A DNA stretch of 64,000 nt from an uncultured candidatus Porisulfidus sp. (GCA_965214545.1 OZ243950.1:59044-123043); one strand, 5' to 3'. Counted from the stretch's first letter, positions 1 to 60,221 are shown. Numbers and translations: made by a program. The notes: generated by a model from the sequence alone, not told the origin.

Positions 1-225
1 ATGGAAGTAGAAATCATGGGCCTCGGGCCCGGTGAACAGGAAGAAATCGCGCGGGCCGAGCCGGAACTGGAGGAGTTCGCCTTGCGCGCGCCAGCCGCGC
101 TGCAGCATGGCGACCGGGTCCTTCTGGAAATCCAGCAGATGGCCGAGCAGTGGCCAGCCTCCGCCCACCTCGGGAATGGCCCGCGTCTCCTGCGGCGAAA
201 TCGGGGTGGAACGGGCGGTGCTCAT
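1..225 (-). CDS. cyp51: Cytochrome P450, sterol 14-alpha-demethylase (CYP51)-like, N-terminal part (runs off window edge)
   Basis: Manual translation from ATG at 225: MSTARSTPISPQETRAIPEVGGGWPLLGHLLDFQKDPVAMLQRGWRAQGELLQFRLGPRDFFLFTGPEAHDFYFH. Has the P450 N-terminal PxxGGxPLLGH pattern and a CYP51-like 'GPEAHDFYF' segment. Starts 15 nt after the sterol reductase stop. Not in ORF track. Confidence 0.8.
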   Translation of the reverse strand, partial: MSTARSTPISPQETRAIPEVGGGWPLLGHLLDFQKDPVAMLQRGWRAQGELLQFRLGPRDFFLFTGPEAHDFYFH

Positions 226-240
226 GGTCCAGCTTGCGCC

Positions 241-1332
241 TCAGTAGACGAACGGCACCATCGCGAAGCGCACCCGTTTCGTGTAGCGCTCCCACAACGC
301 GCCGTACTTGGCGCGGCAGCGGCGGTCGTCGCGCCGGGAGCGATGCCACAACAGGCAGGCCAGCCAGGCGGGAAGCAGGTAGGGCAGCCAGGACGCGAAC
401 CCGGTGGTCAGGACGAATGAAAGGTAGATGCAGATCTCGCCGGTATAGTTGAGATGCCGCCCGATCCCCCAGAATCCGGAGACCAGCAGGCGCCCGTCCA
501 GGGATTCGGCGGGCTTGCCCCAGATCGTGGCGTCGGGGTTGCGCTTGAAGCGATGCTTTTGCCCGTTGGCGCCGCGGAAGACCCAGAAGCCGAAGACGAA
601 CAGCGACGCGATCGCGGCGGCGGCGAGGGGCGACAGCGGGTCCGGCGCGTGGACCAGCCACCAGCCGGCGAGGCAGTAGAAAAACGGCACCAGCACGTAG
701 TCGCCCCAGACCAGCATCCATCCGAAGCGCTCGCTGACGATGTCCCAGGTGTGGACCATCCCGCGCTCGAACAGGAAATAGTTGAGCACGTACAGGAAGG
801 TGAAGGCTTGGTAGAGCATCATGGCCAGGCTCAGTTCGCCATAGGTTTCGTACTGCACCACGGCGAACGAAACGTTGAACAGGGCGAGGCCGATGAGGGA
901 AGGGCGGTAGCTGAAGAATTTCAGGTCCACGCCGAACCAGGCCGGATGGCCCTCCCTGCCGTAGAAGAAGCCGGCCAGGCCCCCGGGGGATTCGCCCGGG
1001 GCCCGGGTGCCCCGGTAGTACAGCCAGGCGGACAGGGTGAACGCGAACACGTTCGCCACCACGAACAGGGCGAGGAAGTGGGTGTGCAGCACCGAAAGGG
1101 AGAACCCGCCTGCGGCCTGGGACAGCCCCGCTGTCATCATGACCAGCAGGAACAGGGCCAGGCCGTTGCTGCGGTAGACCCGGGGCTTGCCGTCGAAATC
1201 CGGTCCCGTGATCCGGCGTCCGGGCAGCAGCATCGAGCCCAGGAACAGGACGCCGAAGAAGCCCAGCATCATGACCGACGCGTCGAACAGGGCGCTGCCC
1301 GACAGCATCAACGCGGCGGGCAGCTCAGACAT
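241..1332 (-). CDS. ERG4/ERG24-family sterol reductase (probably Delta14-sterol reductase)
   Basis: Multi-TM protein with family motifs GRExHP, DxKFF..RP, ERFGWMLVWGD, FRGANxQKHRFK, LLVSGFWGIGRHLNYTGE, RDDRRCRAKYG. Confidence 0.9.
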   Translation of the reverse strand: MSELPAALMLSGSALFDASVMMLGFFGVLFLGSMLLPGRRITGPDFDGKPRVYRSNGLALFLLVMMTAGLSQAAGGFSLSVLHTHFLALFVVANVFAFTLSAWLYYRGTRAPGESPGGLAGFFYGREGHPAWFGVDLKFFSYRPSLIGLALFNVSFAVVQYETYGELSLAMMLYQAFTFLYVLNYFLFERGMVHTWDIVSERFGWMLVWGDYVLVPFFYCLAGWWLVHAPDPLSPLAAAAIASLFVFGFWVFRGANGQKHRFKRNPDATIWGKPAESLDGRLLVSGFWGIGRHLNYTGEICIYLSFVLTTGFASWLPYLLPAWLACLLWHRSRRDDRRCRAKYGALWERYTKRVRFAMVPFVY

Positions 1333-2422
1333 AGGCGCTGCCGTTTTCTGCCTTGCGCGCCAGGTATTCCCGCCACTTGCGCACGGTCACGTCCTGGAAG
1401 GCCTCGACCACGGGGTTGAATTCGACGCTCGGGGCGTCCCAGTGCTTCTCGTAGCCTTCCTGCTCTGCTTCGAGCGCGAACCGGTCCTGGCTGAGCAGGG
1501 GCCCGATGAGCATGCGGTTCGAGACTTTCAAGACCCAGGTCATGGCGAAACGGGGGATGCGCACCGGCAGCAGGGGGAGTTTCAGCGACCGGAAGTAGAA
1601 CAGGAAGAACGTCCGGGTCGTGCGCTCGTCGATGGGAAGCACGAACAGCCAGTGCTTGATCGCATCATCGGTGTTTGACCACTGGTACGGGTACTGGTAG
1701 CAGAGTTTCATGTGGTTGGTGTCCAGCCGCTTGTGGTCGACGAACCGTCCGGAGACGCGCCCGCGCCCGACCCGCGTGTCGTAGGAGAGGTGCACGTCGT
1801 CGCCGACGGTCTCGCAGTGGGTGAGGGTGGCGCCGACGAAGGGGCGGTATTTCCGGTGCAGGTGGGCGTGGGTGAAGTCGCTCACGTTGTCGATCACCAT
1901 CGAGTGGTGGGCCGACCAGGTGAAGGTGAGCGGGACGCAGGCCCATCGGCCGGGGCCCTCCAGTTCGGGAATGTCCGGGATCTGCCGTGATTCCGCCTTC
2001 TCCGGGTCGCCGGGGAACAGCCAGACCAGGCCGTAACGGACTTTCACGGGATAGGACCGGATCGAGACGGTCTGGCAACTTTCGCCCAGGTGTTCGCGCG
2101 GCCCTCCGGCCCGCTGCCCGTTGCCTTCGTATTGCCAGCCGTGGTAGGCGCACACGAGGCGGCAGTCCTGGACTTCGCCGATGGAGAGTTTGAGCTGGCG
2201 GTGGGCACAGCGGTCCTCGACTGCATGGAAGGTGCCGTCCTTCGCCCGGAACAGGGCGATGGAGTGCTTCCAGAACACGACCTCGACCACGGTCCCCGGC
2301 TTGACGCGGCGGACTTCCTCGACCGCGTACCAGTAATCCGGGTCCATGCCCGCGGCGCGCGCCTGCTGGCGCAGGTTGTGGGCGGCATCAAAGTCAGGGG
2401 GTGGGCAGCTTGTCAGGTTCAT
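1325..2422 (-). CDS. sdmA: Rieske non-heme iron oxygenase, sterol C-4 demethylase SdmA-like
   Basis: Rieske CAH...CAYHGW, mononuclear Fe motif DNVSDFTHAHLH, plus YQYPYQ and HWLFVLPIDERTTR segments that recall SdmA; lies between an SdmB-like SDR and sterol genes. Confidence 0.82.
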   Translation of the reverse strand: MNLTSCPPPDFDAAHNLRQQARAAGMDPDYWYAVEEVRRVKPGTVVEVVFWKHSIALFRAKDGTFHAVEDRCAHRQLKLSIGEVQDCRLVCAYHGWQYEGNGQRAGGPREHLGESCQTVSIRSYPVKVRYGLVWLFPGDPEKAESRQIPDIPELEGPGRWACVPLTFTWSAHHSMVIDNVSDFTHAHLHRKYRPFVGATLTHCETVGDDVHLSYDTRVGRGRVSGRFVDHKRLDTNHMKLCYQYPYQWSNTDDAIKHWLFVLPIDERTTRTFFLFYFRSLKLPLLPVRIPRFAMTWVLKVSNRMLIGPLLSQDRFALEAEQEGYEKHWDAPSVEFNPVVEAFQDVTVRKWREYLARKAENGSAYV

Positions 2423-2423
2423 T

Positions 2424-3572
2424 TCAGCCTCCGTCGGGAGTCAGGGGTGCGCGGGGGTCCGGCGTGGGATTTTCTGCGTGTTCCAGGGGGTCCATGCTCG
2501 GGGGTTTCGCGTCCGGGTTTGTGATGGCCTTGCGCTGATAGTAGTGGAAGGCGTAGGCTTCTTGGACGGCGGCGCGGATGCTGGTCGGGCGGTAGCCGAG
2601 TTCCTCTTGCGCCTTGCGGGTGCTGGTGTGGAGGCACTTTCGCAGCAGGCGGATGGCACCGGGCGTGAAACGTTGGGGGAAATTCGGGTGGAAGCGGCTC
2701 AGGTAAAAGCTCGCCACTTCCGCGAAGACGAGCATCGCGCGGACCGGGATCCGCCGGTTCGGGCGCGGGATGCCGGAGACTTCCTCCCATAGGCCGACGA
2801 TCTCGGAGATGGTCTTGTACTCGGTGCTGAAGATGTACTTCTCACCCGAGCGGCCGCGGTCCATGCACAAGCGATGCCCTTCGACGATATCCCGTGCCGC
2901 GACGAACTCGAAGCCGCCGTCGATGTAGGCGCGGAGCTTGCCGCTGGTGTAGTCGCACAGGGTTCGGCCTAGCCGCGAGGGGAAGAAATCGTTGCCTCCC
3001 ACCACCGCGCAGCAGGTCGCGACGATGACATCCTGGCCGGCCGCCGCGGCGCGCCAGCACACCTGTTCGACGAGGGTCTTGCTGCGCTCGTAGGGCATCG
3101 TGCGTTCCATGGGATAGAACAGCATGGTCTCGTCGCTGGGGGCGGAGGGGTCGTCCAGGTTGTATCCGACGGCGCTGAAGGAGCCGGTCACCACCACCCG
3201 GCCGGCATCCGTCTCCCGAGCCGCTTGCAGCAGGTTGCGGGTGCCGATGACGTTGCATTCGTAGATGTCCCGGCGGTGCGCGTGGTTTCCTTCAATGGTC
3301 GAAACCATGGCCGCGCAGTGGTAGACGCCCTGGCAGCCCTCGATCGCCTGGCGCATGGAATGCAGGTCGCGGAGGTCGCCGAACGTGCGTTCGACGTCGA
3401 GGCCGTCCAGCGCCGCGTTGTTCTCCCCGTGTCTCAGCAGCACCCGGACTCGGGTGCCTTCGCCGAGCAGCCGGCGCACGAGATTGGCGCCCACATGCCC
3501 GGCCGCGCCGGTGACGAAAACGGGTGCGGGCGCGGCCGAGGCCGACGGGGGGGTACTGGGTTCTGGATTCAT
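2424..3572 (-). CDS. sdmB: Extended SDR NAD(P)-dependent oxidoreductase, sterol C-4 decarboxylase/reductase SdmB-like
   Basis: VTGAAGHVGANLV NAD-binding motif, catalytic YERSK, 1 nt gap to sdmA. Confidence 0.78.
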   Translation of the reverse strand: MNPEPSTPPSASAAPAPVFVTGAAGHVGANLVRRLLGEGTRVRVLLRHGENNAALDGLDVERTFGDLRDLHSMRQAIEGCQGVYHCAAMVSTIEGNHAHRRDIYECNVIGTRNLLQAARETDAGRVVVTGSFSAVGYNLDDPSAPSDETMLFYPMERTMPYERSKTLVEQVCWRAAAAGQDVIVATCCAVVGGNDFFPSRLGRTLCDYTSGKLRAYIDGGFEFVAARDIVEGHRLCMDRGRSGEKYIFSTEYKTISEIVGLWEEVSGIPRPNRRIPVRAMLVFAEVASFYLSRFHPNFPQRFTPGAIRLLRKCLHTSTRKAQEELGYRPTSIRAAVQEAYAFHYYQRKAITNPDAKPPSMDPLEHAENPTPDPRAPLTPDGG

Positions 3573-3919: not shown

Positions 3920-5485
3920 TCAGGCTGGCTCGGCTCGCACTCCCAGCAGGTTGCGCTCCTCCCGTCCGAACGCGATCCCGACCAAGTGAATCGGCTCGCC
4001 CCGGTCGCGGTACTTCTCCGCATAGCCCCGCTCCCGGATCTGCGCCAGGGCCGCATCCAGTGCCGCCTCCCCGTCTTCGCCCTCCGCCGCCATCTTGAAC
4101 TCCAGCACGAACACCTGCCCCCCGCGGAACACCACCATGTCCGCCCGGCCCCGGCTGGAGGCATCCTCCACCCGCAGGTCCACTCCGTTCGATCGGAAAC
4201 ACGCATACAGCAAGCCTCCGTACCAAGCCTCGTACCGCGCCAACTCCCCGCTCGTGTGCCACTGGTACGGCACTCCCGCATAAAAACTTTTCAGCTCGTC
4301 TCCAAATCCCTCGAAGTCCCCCGACTCCAGGCAACCGCACAACTGCTGGCCCCAGGCCACCACGTCCTCCCCTCGTTGTCCCAAGTGCTCCAATAGCCCG
4401 TCGTTCAAGCTCTGCCGCACTTCCTGGTTCGGATAGTCCAGCGTGTAAAAGGTCTTGTCCCCAATTGTCTCCTCGGCCGTGATCGTCAGGTAGCCGGTCT
4501 GGAATAGCAAGGCATCCAGCCCAATGTCCTTCACATCGAACTTCGAGACCAGTTTCTCGCTCGCCACCCGCTGCTCTAACTGCATCGGGTTCATTTCCTT
4601 CTCCATCATCAACCGGAACAGGAAGTTCGGCGAACCGGTCTCATACCAGTAGGGCTTGAATTTCCGGCTGTCGAACAACAGAAGGATGTCCCACGGGTTG
4701 TAGACTTTCTCCTCACCCAGCCAGTGATAGCCGTTGTACCAGGCGCGGATCTGATCCCGGTCCAGGCCCTCCAGTTCCGGGGCGAACACCGTGTCCAGAT
4801 CGGCATCGGTGTACCCACAGACCGTGGAATACCTTGGGTTCAAGCTGATGTCCTTCAGGTTGTTGAGCCCCGAGAACAGGCTCACCTTCGAGAACATGCT
4901 CACCCCGGTCACGAATACGAACCGCACATGCTTGGCACTGCCCTTGATGACGCCGTAGAAGGCACGCAGGTAATCCCGGTTCGCCTCCGACAACGCCGTG
5001 TCTTTCAAGGTATCCAGGATCGGCTTGTCGTACTCGTCCACCAGCACCGCCACCGGTTGGCCGCTCTCCTCGTGCAGACGGCTCAGAAGGTCCCGAAGCC
5101 GCTGCGGCCCATTCTGCACCTGGGTTGTCGGGGAAAGACCGGCCTGACGCTCAATGATCGCCAGTTGCGTGAGAATCTCCCCTTCAAGGTCCTCCGGCTC
5201 CGTATGCTTTCCATCAAAACTCAGATGCACCACCGGATGGCGCACAGACCAATCCCAGTGGTTGTGGATGTCCAACCCCTCAAACAGTTCCTCCTGACCC
5301 TCGAACAGGGCTTCGAGCGTGCTCACCAGCAGGCTCTTGCCGAACCGGCGCGGACGAGACAGGAAATAGTGGCGCCCCCCTTCGACCAACTCCCGGATGA
5401 GAGGGGTCTTGTCCACGTAGTAATAGCCCCGCTCCCGGATCGCCCGGAAGTCCTGGATTCCAATGGGTAGCTTGCGGCGGGTCAT
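3920..5485 (-). CDS. AAA-ATPase-like protein with C-terminal PD-(D/E)XK nuclease domain
   Basis: LPIGIQDF N-terminus, YYVDKT, Walker A SRPRRFGKS, Walker B VLVDEYDKP, C-terminal GRADM...VLEFK and AQIRERGYAEKY. Confidence 0.88.
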   Translation of the reverse strand: MTRRKLPIGIQDFRAIRERGYYYVDKTPLIRELVEGGRHYFLSRPRRFGKSLLVSTLEALFEGQEELFEGLDIHNHWDWSVRHPVVHLSFDGKHTEPEDLEGEILTQLAIIERQAGLSPTTQVQNGPQRLRDLLSRLHEESGQPVAVLVDEYDKPILDTLKDTALSEANRDYLRAFYGVIKGSAKHVRFVFVTGVSMFSKVSLFSGLNNLKDISLNPRYSTVCGYTDADLDTVFAPELEGLDRDQIRAWYNGYHWLGEEKVYNPWDILLLFDSRKFKPYWYETGSPNFLFRLMMEKEMNPMQLEQRVASEKLVSKFDVKDIGLDALLFQTGYLTITAEETIGDKTFYTLDYPNQEVRQSLNDGLLEHLGQRGEDVVAWGQQLCGCLESGDFEGFGDELKSFYAGVPYQWHTSGELARYEAWYGGLLYACFRSNGVDLRVEDASSRGRADMVVFRGGQVFVLEFKMAAEGEDGEAALDAALAQIRERGYAEKYRDRGEPIHLVGIAFGREERNLLGVRAEPA

Positions 5486-24851: not shown

Positions 24852-26704
24852 AAGAGTTTCCATTTCTGTCGAAGATTGAAAGCCCGATCGATTTGCGCCG
24901 GCTACACCGCGAGAACCTGCCGACGGTTGCGAACGAGCTTCGCGAATACCTGATCCAAAGCGTGGCCCGGTGCGGCGGGCACTTCGGAGCCAGTCTCGGC
25001 GCGGTCGAACTGACCGTGGTCCTGCACTATGCCTTCAACACGCCGGACGACTACCTGGTCTGGGATGTCGGCCACCAGGCCTACGGGCACAAGATCCTGA
25101 CCGGGCGCCGCGAGCAGCTGGAGACGATTCGCCGCTGGGGTGGCCTGGCGCCATTCCCGGAGCGGCACGAAAGCCCGTACGACAGTTTCGGGGTGGGACA
25201 CTCCAGCACTTCAATCAGTGCGGCCCTGGGCATGGCGCTGGCCAGCCGCAACGCGGGGACGCCGTGCAAGTCGGTCGCGGTGATCGGGGATGGCGGCCTG
25301 ACGGCCGGCTTGGCTTACGAGGCGCTCAATCACCTGGGGGTCTCCGATGCCGACGTGCTGGTGGTCCTGAACGACAACGAGATGTCGATCTCGCCGAACG
25401 TGGGCGCGATGTCCCGCTACCTGACCCGCCTGCTTGCGGGGAGCCTGTACAGTTCGGTGCGCGAGCGCGGCCAGCGCATGCTGAGTTCGGTGCCCCGAGT
25501 CAAAAAATTCGCGATGCGGATGGAGGGGCAGCTCAAGGGGATGATCCTGCCGGCGGGCATGCTGTTCGAGGAACTGGGGGTGCAGTATTTCGGGCCGGTG
25601 GGCGGTCATGACGTGTTGGGCTTGCTGGAGGTCGTGGAGAAGATGCGCGACCAGACGGGCCCGCGCCTGCTGCACGTCATCACCCAGAAAGGGAAGGGCT
25701 ATGAGCCCGCGGAAGGCGATCCCGTGGGCTATCACGCCGTGCCGATCTTCGATCCGGAGATCGGTGTGGAGAAGAAAGGATCCAGCGGAGGGCCGACCTA
25801 TACGCAGGTGTTCGGCGAGTGGCTGTCCGACCAGGCTGCCGCAGACTCCCGGCTGTTGGCGATCACCCCGGCGATGCGGGAGGGCAGCGGCCTCGTCCGC
25901 TTCGAGAAGGAGTACCCGGAACGTTATTTCGACGTTGGTATCGCCGAGCAGCACTCGGTCGCCGTGGCCGCGGGCATGGCCTGCGCGGGCGCGAAGCCGG
26001 TGGTGGCCATCTACTCGACGTTCCTGCAGCGCGGATACGACCAGTTAGTCCACGACATCGTGGTGCAGGAACTGGACGTGCTGCTGGCCATCGACCGGGC
26101 CGGGATGGTCGGAAACGACGGGAAGACTCACGTCGGCGCCTTCGACCTGTCCTACCTGCGTTGCCTGCCGGGCATGGTGGTCATGGTCCCATCCGATGAA
26201 GACGAATGCCGGAAGATGCTGACGACGGGGTTCCTGCACGAAGGTCCGGCGGCGGTGCGCTATCCGCGCGGCAAGGGGCCGGGGGCCGAGATTGAGAAGA
26301 ACCTGGAGCCGATTCCGATTGGCAAGGCGCGCAAGGTCCGCGAAGGAAAAGAGATCGCGTTCCTGGTGTTCGGCAGCCTGCTGGACCAGGTGCGCCCGGT
26401 CGCGGAGGAACTGGACGCGACGCTGATCGACATGCGTTTCGTCAAACCCCTGGACCTGGAATGCCTGAACGAGGCGGCGGCGGCCCACGGGTTGCTGGTG
26501 ACGGTCGAAGACAACGTCGTGGCAGGCGGGGCGGGCAGCGCGGTGGGCGAGGCCCTGGAGTTGGAAGGGTCCACCCGGATGCTGCAACTGGGCCTGCCGG
26601 ATCGCTATGTCGAGCATGGTACCCGCGAGGAACAATTGACATCGGTGGGTCTGGATACGGACGGAATCAGAAAATCGGTGGCCGAGTATCGGGGAGAGGG
26701 CTGA
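24848..26704 (+). CDS. dxs: 1-deoxy-D-xylulose-5-phosphate synthase
   Basis: GHFGASLG, WDVGHQAY, GHSSTSIS, GDGG...LNDN, DVGIAEQH, IYSTFLQRGYDQ, DRAG. Confidence 0.98.
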   Translation: MKEFPFLSKIESPIDLRRLHRENLPTVANELREYLIQSVARCGGHFGASLGAVELTVVLHYAFNTPDDYLVWDVGHQAYGHKILTGRREQLETIRRWGGLAPFPERHESPYDSFGVGHSSTSISAALGMALASRNAGTPCKSVAVIGDGGLTAGLAYEALNHLGVSDADVLVVLNDNEMSISPNVGAMSRYLTRLLAGSLYSSVRERGQRMLSSVPRVKKFAMRMEGQLKGMILPAGMLFEELGVQYFGPVGGHDVLGLLEVVEKMRDQTGPRLLHVITQKGKGYEPAEGDPVGYHAVPIFDPEIGVEKKGSSGGPTYTQVFGEWLSDQAAADSRLLAITPAMREGSGLVRFEKEYPERYFDVGIAEQHSVAVAAGMACAGAKPVVAIYSTFLQRGYDQLVHDIVVQELDVLLAIDRAGMVGNDGKTHVGAFDLSYLRCLPGMVVMVPSDEDECRKMLTTGFLHEGPAAVRYPRGKGPGAEIEKNLEPIPIGKARKVREGKEIAFLVFGSLLDQVRPVAEELDATLIDMRFVKPLDLECLNEAAAAHGLLVTVEDNVVAGGAGSAVGEALELEGSTRMLQLGLPDRYVEHGTREEQLTSVGLDTDGIRKSVAEYRGEG

Positions 26705-58376: not shown

Positions 58377-60221
58377 ATGGGATTGTTTAATCGAAGGAAA
58401 ACTGTGGTCGTCGATTCCGACGTGCTCGTCGTCGGCGGCGGCATGGCCGGTTGCGGCGCCACCTACGAATCCAGGTACTGGGGACGCGACCTGAAGGTGG
58501 TCTGCGTCGAGAAGGCCAACATCGAACGCAGCGGCGCGGTCGCGCAGGGCTTGTACGCCATCAACTGCTACATGGGCATGCAGTGGGGCGAGAACCAGCC
58601 GGAAGACCATGTCCGCTATGCGCGCAACGACCTCATGGGGCTGGTGCGGGAGGACCTGGGCTATGACATCGCCCGGCACGTCGACGCCACCGTGCACAAA
58701 TTCGAAGAGTGGGGCCTGCCCCTGATGCGCGACCCGGAAACGGGGCGCTACCAGCGCGAGGGCAAATGGCAGATCATGATCCACGGCGAAAGCTACAAGC
58801 CGATCGTCGCCGAGGCGGCGCGCAAGGCCGCCAGCGAAGTCTACAACCGGATCATGGTGACCCACCTGTTGATGGATGAGTCGAAGCCGAACCGGGTGGC
58901 CGGTGCCGTCGGCTTCAATGTCCGCACCGGGGATTTCTACGTGTTCCGCGCCAAGGCCGTGATCGTGTGCGCCGGAGGCGCCTCGCATATCTACAAGCCC
59001 CGTTCCGTCGGGGAAGGCATGGGACGCACCTGGTACGCGCCGTGGAGCAGTGCCTCGGCCTATGCGCTGCCGATTTTGGCCGGCGCCAAGATGACCCAGA
59101 TGGAGAACCGCATCGTCCTGGCCCGATTCAAGGACGGCTACGGCCCGGTCGGCGCCTACTTCCTGCACCTCAAGACCTATACCCAGAATGGTTATGGCGA
59201 GGAGTACGAGTCCAAGTGGTATGAGCACACCAAGGAAATGGTCGGCGAATACATCGATCACCATCCGACCCCCACCTGCCTGCGCAATCACGCCTTCCTG
59301 GAAGAAGTGAAGGCGGGCCGGGGCCCGATCCGCATGGTGACCAAGGAGGCCTTCCAGGACCCGCACAAGGAAACCGTGGGCTGGGAGAACTTCCTCGGCA
59401 TGACCATTGGCCAGGCGGTGGTCTGGGCGGCACAGAACATCGATCCCAAGCACATCAACCCGGAACTGACGACGTCCGAGCCCTACGTCATGGGCTCCCA
59501 CGCGACCTGTTCGGGCGCCTGGGCCAGCGGCCCGGAGGATGTGGCACCGTCGGATTACCAGTGGGGCTACAACCGGATGATGACCGTGGAAGGCTTGTTC
59601 GGCGCCGGCGATACGATTGGCGGCAGCGCGCACAAGTTCTCATCGGGGTCCTACACCGAAGGCCGCATCGCGGCCAAGGCGGCGGTCAACTACATCAACG
59701 ACCTGAAGAACGAAAAGCTTCAAGTCAGCGAGAAGCAGTGCCAGGACCTGAAAGAGACGATCTACAAGCCGCTGGAGAACTACGAGGTCGGCCGCAACGA
59801 GATCGTGGCGGGCACCGTCTCGCCGAGCTATATTCTGCCGATCCACGGCCTGCAGCGCCTCGAGAAGATCATGGACGAATATGTCGGCGGGATCAGCACC
59901 AACTACATGACCAACGAGCCCTTGCTCACGCGCGGTCTGGAACTGCTGGACATGCTGAAGACGGACCTCGACAGCATCGGCGCCGAAGACCTCCACCAGT
60001 TGCAGCGCACCTGGGAGCTCCAGCACCGGTTCCTGGCCTCGCAGTCGGTCGCGCACCACACGCTGTTCCGCAAGGAGACGCGCTGGCCCGGCTACTACTA
60101 CCGGGGCGATTTCCCGAAACTCGACGACCAGGACTGGCATTGCCTCACCCTGTCCCGCTATGACCGGGAATCCGACGAGTGGGAAATGGAGAAGGCGCCG
60201 GTCCACCACATCATCGACTGA
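58377..60221 (+). CDS. aprA: Adenylylsulfate reductase alpha subunit
   Basis: GGGMAGCG, RSGAVAQGL, WQIMIHGESYK, MTQMENR, HKFSSGS, ETRWPGYYYR. Confidence 0.98.
   Translation: MGLFNRRKTVVVDSDVLVVGGGMAGCGATYESRYWGRDLKVVCVEKANIERSGAVAQGLYAINCYMGMQWGENQPEDHVRYARNDLMGLVREDLGYDIARHVDATVHKFEEWGLPLMRDPETGRYQREGKWQIMIHGESYKPIVAEAARKAASEVYNRIMVTHLLMDESKPNRVAGAVGFNVRTGDFYVFRAKAVIVCAGGASHIYKPRSVGEGMGRTWYAPWSSASAYALPILAGAKMTQMENRIVLARFKDGYGPVGAYFLHLKTYTQNGYGEEYESKWYEHTKEMVGEYIDHHPTPTCLRNHAFLEEVKAGRGPIRMVTKEAFQDPHKETVGWENFLGMTIGQAVVWAAQNIDPKHINPELTTSEPYVMGSHATCSGAWASGPEDVAPSDYQWGYNRMMTVEGLFGAGDTIGGSAHKFSSGSYTEGRIAAKAAVNYINDLKNEKLQVSEKQCQDLKETIYKPLENYEVGRNEIVAGTVSPSYILPIHGLQRLEKIMDEYVGGISTNYMTNEPLLTRGLELLDMLKTDLDSIGAEDLHQLQRTWELQHRFLASQSVAHHTLFRKETRWPGYYYRGDFPKLDDQDWHCLTLSRYDRESDEWEMEKAPVHHIID

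Follow-up and report, generated by a model that had tools for sequence, protein, structure and literature searches.

Sterol gene clusters closely resembling the one reported here have been described from sponge-associated bacteria; statements on articles cited by PMC accession refer to the portions of their text that were available. Mohanty et al. (Mar Drugs 2020) described the msb locus (msbA-F) in a gammaproteobacterium living in symbiosis with the sponge Melophlus sarasinorum and proposed that it directs saponin synthesis (PMC7074536). Kelly et al. (Microbiome 2022) found a cluster named CSG in 115 of 537 metagenome-assembled genomes (MAGs) from Ircinia sponges. These MAGs belonged to 11 classes, one of them Gammaproteobacteria; the clusters had low omega values (0.13-0.26) and bore signs of horizontal transfer (PMC9531527). 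The presence of sdmA and sdmB in sponge-symbiont clusters was noted by Brown et al. The present analysis concerns an operon at the left end of a 64,000-nucleotide stretch of the chromosome of an uncultured Candidatus Porisulfidus sp. (GCA_965214545.1, OZ243950.1:59044-123043; hereafter the window). It encodes an extended short-chain dehydrogenase/reductase (SDR), a Rieske monooxygenase, a sterol reductase of the ERG4/ERG24 family, CYP51 and, beyond the window end, a fused squalene epoxidase/oxidosqualene cyclase. This operon is the msb/CSG cluster, which sponge-associated bacteria share through horizontal transfer, and thus a cluster type that has already been published. With a probability of about 0.75, we consider that it serves de novo sterol synthesis from squalene by these five gene products. 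New are the placement of the SDR and the Rieske protein in SdmB and SdmA by phylogenetic trees, the full listing of the pathway genes for a closed genome, the decay history of the cluster within the genus and its linkage with a GPP34-P450 gene.

Relatives were found to be encoded in 444 stretches of species-representative genomes, and the 80 best public loci were compared with the operon. All six parts of the cluster, including the sterol methyltransferase (SMT), are held by 65 of these 80 loci; 71 contain the core of ERG24, CYP51 and the fusion, 59 contain SMT, and 60 are colinear, with 56-91 % protein identity to the operon proteins. The relatives are labelled as Binatia, Nitrospirales, Acidimicrobiales, Alphaproteobacteria, Acidobacteriota, Verrucomicrobiota, Rhodothermales and others. 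The msb locus likewise combines overlapping genes for an NAD(P) oxidoreductase and a Rieske protein with a membrane sterol reductase, CYP51 and a bifunctional squalene epoxidase/cyclase carrying the lanosterol-type valine; squalene synthase is encoded apart from the cluster in both genomes, on a different scaffold in that of msb (PMC7074536). It differs in that the sterol methyltransferase msbF is intact there and a relic here, the two loci being likened by their descriptions. CSG shares the ERG24-CYP51-LSS core, and the 'dihydroflavonol reductase' and 'hypothetical protein' preceding it on the same strand correspond to the SDR and the Rieske protein. With 3765 positions, the LSS alignment is consistent with the fused gene; the available text of that paper contains no SdmA/SdmB annotation and no remark on an epoxidase fusion (PMC9531527). 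The 3' neighbour in CSG, either SMT or FDFT1, runs in the opposite direction, whereas SMT stands on the same strand in the genome of the window (as a relic) and in its nearest relatives. The first-pass annotation of the window had placed the operon in a lineage not known for sterols, which does not hold given the clusters published in 2020 from the Melophlus symbiont and later from the Ircinia MAGs. Among the literature naming Porisulfidus, no item dealt with sterols by title or abstract.

The source assembly consists of one contig of 1,853,631 bases with zero N, of which the window represents G000:C1:59044-123043, and the genome has a completeness of 99.18 % and a contamination of 0.27 %. The gene positions are collected in Table 1. 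The junctions within the operon are tight. The SDR and Rieske genes are separated by 1 nt (TGA-A-ATG), the Rieske and reductase genes overlap by 8 nt (ATGTCTGA), and the reductase stop TGA is followed by 15 nt and the ATG of CYP51. The GTG start of the fusion overlaps the CYP51 stop as GTGA. From these coupling-type junctions, the five genes SDR-Rieske-ERG24-CYP51-fusion are assigned to one translationally coupled operon, the four genes of the window being its promoter-proximal part. A promoter scan upstream of the SDR gene and a terminator scan downstream of the fusion gave no signal above shuffled sequences. Several proposals of the first-pass annotation were confirmed at this point. The open reading frame (ORF) coordinates reproduced the four co-oriented genes and their spacing (1, -8 and 15 nt), and the cyclase and epoxidase that it had suspected to the left of the window were found there, as a single fused gene directly after CYP51.

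The SDR and the Rieske protein are assigned to the SdmB and SdmA families. In Pfam the SDR matched Epimerase (119.8 bits) and 3Beta_HSD (68.2 bits), and the Rieske protein matched Rieske (72.1 bits) and VanA_C (53.5 bits). The Rieske protein scored 401.5 bits on the SdmA model NF052579, covering model positions 4-348 of 351, with the runner-up family at 34 bits. The best NCBIfam family of the SDR was SdmB (NF052578), with 300.8 bits versus 230.2 for HpnA; for comparison, the reference SdmB of genome G217 reached 678.3 bits on SdmB and 268.5 on HpnA. True HpnA proteins in genomes G433 and G288 scored 505-511 bits on HpnA, against 233-237 for the SDRs encoded in their clusters. The motifs GxxGxxG (residue 22) and YxxxK (residue 161) were detected in the SDR. 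The Rieske motif CxH-x16-CxxH (CAHRQLKLSIGEVQDCRLVCAYH) and the iron motif D-x3-D-x2-H-x3-H (DNVSDFTHAHLH) of the Rieske protein show the same spacing as in the over-cut-off SdmA of G217. A homology search with the SDR returned in its top 120 the sponge-type clade alone (73-85 % identity), named at most 'NAD-dependent epimerase/dehydratase'.

As both proteins stay under the 600-bit cut-offs of their models, family membership was tested by trees, with references chosen by the NCBIfam cut-offs in the sampled genomes. A scan of 401 class-wide genomes for SdmA found only G217 above the cut-off (698 bits), with the SDR gene following its SdmA gene. The genome of the window (G000) and G015, G433, G288 and G079 scored 384-403 bits, and a separate group 160-192 bits. 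In the family of G217, which we infer to be a methanotroph family, an SdmA match was obtained in 32 of 41 genomes, with 9 above the cut-off (695-715 bits), 22 at 376-400 bits and one partial match at 284 bits. With only 9 of the 32 above it, the NCBIfam cut-off marks a narrow subgroup. The curated cut-off would leave 23 of these 32 genomes with an unnamed match. The below-cut-off type of this family shows 54-56 % identity to the window Rieske protein and 52-54 % to the window SDR, and has the gene order of the operon, SDR then Rieske. The over-cut-off type shows 45-47 % and 41-43 % identity, respectively, and has the reversed order.

The Rieske tree comprised 35 rows, among them 6 of the over-cut-off type, 3 of the below-cut-off type, 16 of the cluster type and 9 other Rieske proteins, with no KshA or VanA row. 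The SDR tree comprised 28 rows, including two over-cut-off HpnA proteins. Three Rieske fragments shorter than 200 aa (L120-L122) and the loci L106 and L117 were dropped. All SdmA-like proteins formed one clade against the nine other Rieske proteins (support 99/97), within which the cluster type is sister to the below-cut-off type (92/93). In agreement, the SdmB-like proteins encoded beside SdmA genes were separated from HpnA (95/95), and the cluster type was again sister to the below-cut-off type (98/97). Family scores and trees thus bear out the SdmB/SdmA identity suggested in the first-pass annotation. A grouping with KshA, VanA or HpnA, which it had named as the contrary outcome, was not observed: among solved structures the Rieske protein matched DdmC at 69 bits and KshA at 29-31 bits, and the separations from HpnA and from the other Rieske proteins are those given above. 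By this placement, the Rieske/SDR pair would act as a C-4 demethylase.

The complete P450 (Pfam p450, 204.2 bits) is identified as CYP51, as the first-pass annotation had proposed from its N-terminal part. The top 56 distinct sequences among its Protein Data Bank (PDB) matches were all CYP51/sterol 14alpha-demethylases (200-357 bits), led by 7jj1, 6mi0 and 6mcw at 356 bits, and the first non-CYP51 match followed at 159 bits. The heme loop FGGGKHRCIG is present, together with AGQHTS and PIFGRGVAYD, the helix-I and B' motifs which we take to be CYP51 signatures. The reductase matched ERG4_ERG24 (PF01222) with 250.3 bits (cut-off 27) and carries the C-terminal motif GFWGIGRHLNYTGE. Its best PDB match is the delta(14)-sterol reductase 4quv (E 1.1e-67; residues 24-363 versus chain 75-427), in line with the C-14 role suggested earlier, and it is the sole ERG4_ERG24 gene of the genome. 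The gene is located before CYP51, and no enzymes producing delta7 or delta24(28) substrates were found in the genome; the reductase is therefore predicted to be delta14-specific rather than delta7- or delta24(28)-specific.

The fused gene contains in one ORF the SE and FAD_binding_3 domains followed by SQHop_cyclase_N/C. The epoxidase half (PF08491, 73.7 bits; PF01494, 77.9 bits) carries the FAD motif GGGPVG and is nearest in PDB to human squalene monooxygenase (6c6n, 80.4 bits). The cyclase half scored 716.5 bits on the oxidosqualene cyclase family TIGR03463 versus 262.7 for hopene cyclase, and 469.6 bits with human lanosterol synthase (1w6k) versus 171 with squalene-hopene cyclase. It displays the DCTAE motif and a valine aligned to human V453, a residue by which Wei et al. 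2016 (PMC4919349) could tell apart the lanosterol and the cycloartenol producers in their set of tested bacteria. From this valine, the product is probably lanosterol. The fusion is the only cyclase of the genome, and its 119 best homologs, the window's own excluded, are all fused (69-87 % identity).

The rest of the pathway was searched in the complete genome. A single SQS_PSY gene, with squalene synthase as best family, lies elsewhere on the contig, answering a search proposed with the first-pass annotation; directly upstream is a prenyl synthase gene, one of two in the genome. The presence of this squalene synthase and of dxs in the window makes de novo synthesis plausible. No FA_hydroxylase (ERG3/ERG25-type) gene was found in the genome, and neither ERG2 nor EBP was found in it or in 16 relatives, the ERG2 search being made without a positive control. 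A search of the genome with Sterol_MT_C gave only the broken remnant between the fusion and mutS. The proposed route, of which every enzymatic step, the product and the expression of the genes are predictions from sequence, builds on gene content and order, motifs, family placement, purifying selection and operon conservation, all directly observed. Farnesyl diphosphate derived from the methylerythritol phosphate (MEP) pathway would be converted to squalene by the single squalene synthase. The fused enzyme would epoxidise squalene and cyclise the product, probably to lanosterol. CYP51 would strip the 14-alpha methyl group, giving the delta8,14 diene, of which the ERG24-type reductase would saturate delta14, and the Rieske/SDR pair would take off one or both C-4 methyl groups. 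With no methyltransferase, no delta8-delta7 isomerase and no hydroxylase of the ERG3/ERG25 type among the genes found, a simple delta8(,24) C27-C28 sterol, 4-methylzymosterol-like or zymosterol-like, would be expected as end product.

The cluster has been conserved in part of the genus. The nearest loci, with 81-87 % identity of the fusion, belong to MAGs labelled Candidatus Porisulfidus, uncultured Chromatiales or Gammaproteobacteria. In seven of them (L022, L023, L024, L025-L028) recA lies upstream of the cluster at 95-98 % identity, and in six (L022, L023, L025-L028) mutS lies downstream at 88-92 % identity; L024 ends early. The fusion was found in 9 of 15 congeners and in none of the 25 genomes drawn from the order's other families. 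Against four congeners, the ratio of nonsynonymous to synonymous substitutions (dN/dS) was 0.10-0.24 for the five operon genes (0.10-0.19 for the fusion) and 0.08-0.09 for mutS. The dS of the cluster genes (0.44-0.77) is similar to that of the flanking mutS and recA, and the tetranucleotide composition of the cluster is typical, 35 % of 923 genome windows being at least as deviant. A recent horizontal arrival in this genome was rejected on these two grounds. Upstream of recA, five of the six cluster-less congeners were examined, with the results given in Table 1. The SDR fragments in G012 and G013 differ, indicating that the operon was lost by separate deletions. The operon is thus ancestral, old and fixed at the recA-mutS site and has been deleted more than once in the genus, a piecemeal loss which argues against an indispensable role. 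An intact methyltransferase of 344-347 aa follows the fusion on the same strand in 8 of the 8 nearest loci. In 3 of these 8 loci (L024-L026), two extra genes, coding for a fatty-acid-desaturase-like protein of 470 aa and a FAD_binding_4 protein of 511 aa, stand between the methyltransferase and mutS. FAD_binding_4 is the domain that DHCR24-type sterol delta24 reductases contain. By tblastn, the genome of the window lacks both genes.

A number of observations weigh against the operon serving de novo sterol synthesis as proposed. Several scores remain under curated cut-offs: 401.5 and 300.8 bits for the Rieske protein and the SDR (600 for SdmA, as equivalog, and for SdmB), 716.5 bits for the cyclase half (851 for TIGR03463), and that of squalene synthase under its NCBIfam value. 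CYP51 is without the fused ferredoxin seen in the Methylococcus enzyme. The reductase is about 70 N-terminal residues shorter than 4quv, a short form common to the homologs in other loci. The cyclase positions equivalent to human 381/449 are Ala/His and not the classical lanosterol set, so that the lanosterol call is a prediction. According to the available text of PMC10202945, SdmAB removes one methyl group in the methanotroph and both in Calothrix, while Enhygromyxa needs a third protein; with homologs differing in this way, either one or two methyl groups may be lost here. Five of the 6 cluster-less congeners retain squalene synthase, which suggests that squalene has another use as well. 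The cluster is missing from 6 of 15 congeners, and the methyltransferase has decayed to a 61-codon relic (residues 279-339 of 344) in two frames with a TGA, lying directly after the fusion stop, with about 0.86 kb deleted relative to the eight nearest loci; pathway selection is thus not universal in the genus. No RNA run was present among the 4 sequencing runs matching the stretch, which belong to one study and contain 0.92-0.93 of its words, and the available portions of the literature on the sponge-type cluster give no enzyme assay.

As to squalene synthase itself, it is kept by 14 of 15 congeners, and the genome of the window has no hopene cyclase. Its use as a marker of the pathway was rejected on this distribution, which includes the cluster-less genomes mentioned above.

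Other explanations were considered. In place of a membrane sterol, the operon could produce the aglycone of a specialised triterpenoid, such as a 30-norlanostane saponin of the sarasinoside type, with the SDR and the Rieske protein acting in redox tailoring such as C-23 oxidation and not in C-4 demethylation. In favour of this, sarasinosides keep the 4,4-dimethyl group. Saponin synthesis was proposed by the msb authors for the same gene set (PMC7074536), sarasinosides are described as 30-norlanostane saponins (PMC10749473), and an accessory GPP34-P450 gene often stands beside the cluster. The placement of the Rieske protein and the SDR inside the SdmA and SdmB clades (99/97 and 95/95) points in another direction, and the cluster has a distribution far wider than that of any one saponin, covering hundreds of MAGs and many host sponges (444 stretches here; 115 of 537 MAGs in PMC9531527). 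Saponin synthesis is accordingly regarded as unlikely. Clearly less probable still is a role, raised in the first-pass annotation, in remodelling sterols from the host or from food without de novo synthesis. It would fit the nearest named relatives, MAGs labelled sponge-associated; a host would supply sterols, and some bacteria do modify acquired sterols (PMC13277303). It would leave unexplained the intact epoxidase/cyclase fusion, which evolves under purifying selection (dN/dS 0.10-0.19) and whose translation is coupled to that of CYP51, as well as the presence of squalene synthase and a prenyl synthase. In typical host end-product sterols, moreover, the 14-alpha and C-4 methyl groups are already gone, which counts against remodelling.

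It is just as improbable that the operon is unused and in the course of being lost through genome reduction. The frameshifted 61-codon methyltransferase, intact in the eight nearest loci, would agree with such a decay, as would the deletions with remaining SDR fragments in G012 and G013 and a genome of only 1.85 Mb; all five genes are, however, of full length compared with their relatives, their catalytic motifs are intact, and their dN/dS of 0.10-0.24 comes near that of mutS (0.08-0.09). The first-pass annotation had also raised the risk that the block is an assembly chimera on the backbone of a sulfur oxidiser. This was not supported and has practically no probability left: seven other assemblies share the recA-cluster-mutS arrangement, which rules out a chimera at these junctions, the dS of the cluster equals that of its flanks, its composition is typical of the genome, and two cluster-less congeners retain relics of the cluster at this site. 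De novo sterol synthesis therefore remains the preferred reading.

Table 1. Positions of the operon genes and of further features; plain numbers are window positions, G000:C1 is the contig, and L or G numbers denote other extracted loci and genomes.
Feature	Position	Strand	Description	Basis
SdmB-like extended SDR (operon gene 1)	2424..3572	(-)	382 aa; putative NAD(P)-dependent partner of the Rieske protein at C-4	Pfam/NCBIfam and tree
SdmA-like Rieske monooxygenase	1325..2422	(-)	365 aa; putative C-4 methyl oxidase	NCBIfam and tree
ERG4/ERG24-family sterol reductase	241..1332	(-)	363 aa; read as delta14 reductase	Pfam and PDB match
CYP51, first 75 codons	1..225	(-)	open at left window end	ORF listing
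CYP51, complete	L001:16837-18225; far end G000:C1:57880, left of window	(-)	462 aa	PDB matches
Fused squalene epoxidase/oxidosqualene cyclase	L001:13376-16840, left of window	same strand	1154 aa	Pfam domains
Sterol methyltransferase relic	G000:C1:54232-54415 = L001:13189-13372, left of window	(-)		Sterol_MT_C match
dxs	24866..26680 = G000:C1:83909-85723	(+)	MEP pathway entry enzyme	TIGR00204, 831.2 bits, above cut-off
Squalene synthase and prenyl synthase pair	L003:1369-2442 and L003:2525-3403 = G000:C1:1740604-1742635	(-)		SQS_PSY; best family squalene synthase
AAA/PDDEXK gene	3920-5485	(-)	521 aa; between operon and recA	AAA-ATPase_like 213.5 bits, PDDEXK_9 65.5 bits
aprA, copy in window	58419-60215	(+)	full length	981.6 bits, above cut-off
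aprA, second copy	G000:C1:604243-606114	(-)	full length	935 bits, above cut-off
GPP34-P450	L006:271-2301 = G000:C1:369719-371749, outside window	(+)	676 aa	domain architecture
Fatty-acid-desaturase-like gene of a near locus	L025:12538-13950	(-)	470 aa	
FAD_binding_4 gene of a near locus	L025:14021-15556	(-)	511 aa	
SDR fragment in G012	L148:4792-4938		residues 17-64, directly before mutS	
SDR fragment in G013	L149:2622-2744		residues 75-115, near mutS	
recA-mutS site in G009			recA adjoins mutS; no relic detected	
recA-mutS site in G004			rearranged	
recA-mutS site in G006			rearranged	

Leftward past CYP51, the order is the fused gene, the methyltransferase relic and mutS; rightward of the operon are the PD-(D/E)XK/AAA gene and then recA. 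The PD-(D/E)XK/AAA gene has a lower G+C content (60.9 %). A tblastn search of the corresponding stretches in the 80 related loci revealed no counterpart, so that an insertion peculiar to this genome seems likely.

The genome harbours a second P450, in which a GPP34 (Golgi phosphoprotein 3) domain is fused to cytochrome P450. A 2025 paper described GPP34-P450 ('GPP34_L') as exclusive to sponge symbionts and proposed that it blocks phagosome maturation or evades phagocytosis (PMC11706023); the word 'sterol' does not occur in the available part of its text. A literature search joining GPP34, sterol and sponge gave nothing relevant. A full-length GPP34-P450 gene was detected within the 8-kb flanks of 19 of the 80 best cluster loci, from many phyla; 5 copies are co-oriented with a sterol gene at less than 300 bp, and four copies were confirmed by Pfam. 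Within the genus, a copy of at least 44 % identity was found in 10 of 10 cluster-bearing genomes and in 0 of 6 cluster-less ones, one of which has a paralog of 35 %. The P450 part is nearest, weakly (82 bits), to bacterial CYP51 among solved structures. We tentatively raise the possibility, itself doubtful, that GPP34-P450 is instead, or also, an accessory sterol-tailoring P450 of the shared operon, its GPP34 domain bringing the enzyme to lipid or membrane. Against such a link, the cluster-bearing G433 and G288 of another family are without a copy, the genomes compared are kin and not independent, and the cluster and GPP34-P450 are both enriched in the same habitat. If the link were true, a bacterial sterol or oxysterol would be the compound of importance for living within sponges. 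It offers a testable alternative to the published hypothesis on symbiont persistence in sponges.

The first-pass annotation had described the organism as a thiotroph with aprA on the same contig as the operon. The contig indeed holds two full-length aprA genes, one of them inside the window, as well as dsrA, which supports a sulfur oxidiser. The large subunit of RuBisCO was not found in the 99.18 % complete genome; autotrophy is not carried by the gene evidence, and the term thiotroph is only half borne out.

Bacterial sterol synthesis bears on the reading of sterane fossils and on the question of which organisms make the unusual sterols of sponges. The closed genome allows a full inventory of the route, from which a simple delta8 sterol is cleanly predicted, and the five-gene operon represents a compact construct for heterologous work.

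Outside the sponge-associated clusters, bacterial clusters joining oxidosqualene cyclase, CYP51 and SdmAB homologs are known from Calothrix and Enhygromyxa (PMC10202945). They differ from the operon by further eukaryote-like steps up to cholesterol; an ERG3/ERG25-type hydroxylase, ERG2, EBP and a second ERG4/24 were searched for in the genome of the window and not found. With the methanotrophs the operon shares the use of a Rieske/SDR pair for C-4, replacing ERG25/26/27, and of CYP51 for C-14 (PMC10202945, PMC13277303). The pathway of aerobic methanotrophs includes a CYP51-ferredoxin, and most methanotrophs make delta8(14) sterols with an NTF2-type 8,14-Bsr (PMC13277303, PMC10202945), whereas the operon displays a eukaryote-like ERG24-family reductase, an unfused CYP51 and a fused epoxidase and cyclase, and its Rieske protein and SDR show only 41-47 % identity to the Methylococcus-type proteins. 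With a eukaryote-like reductase in place of 8,14-Bsr, delta8 and not delta8(14) sterols would be expected from the operon.

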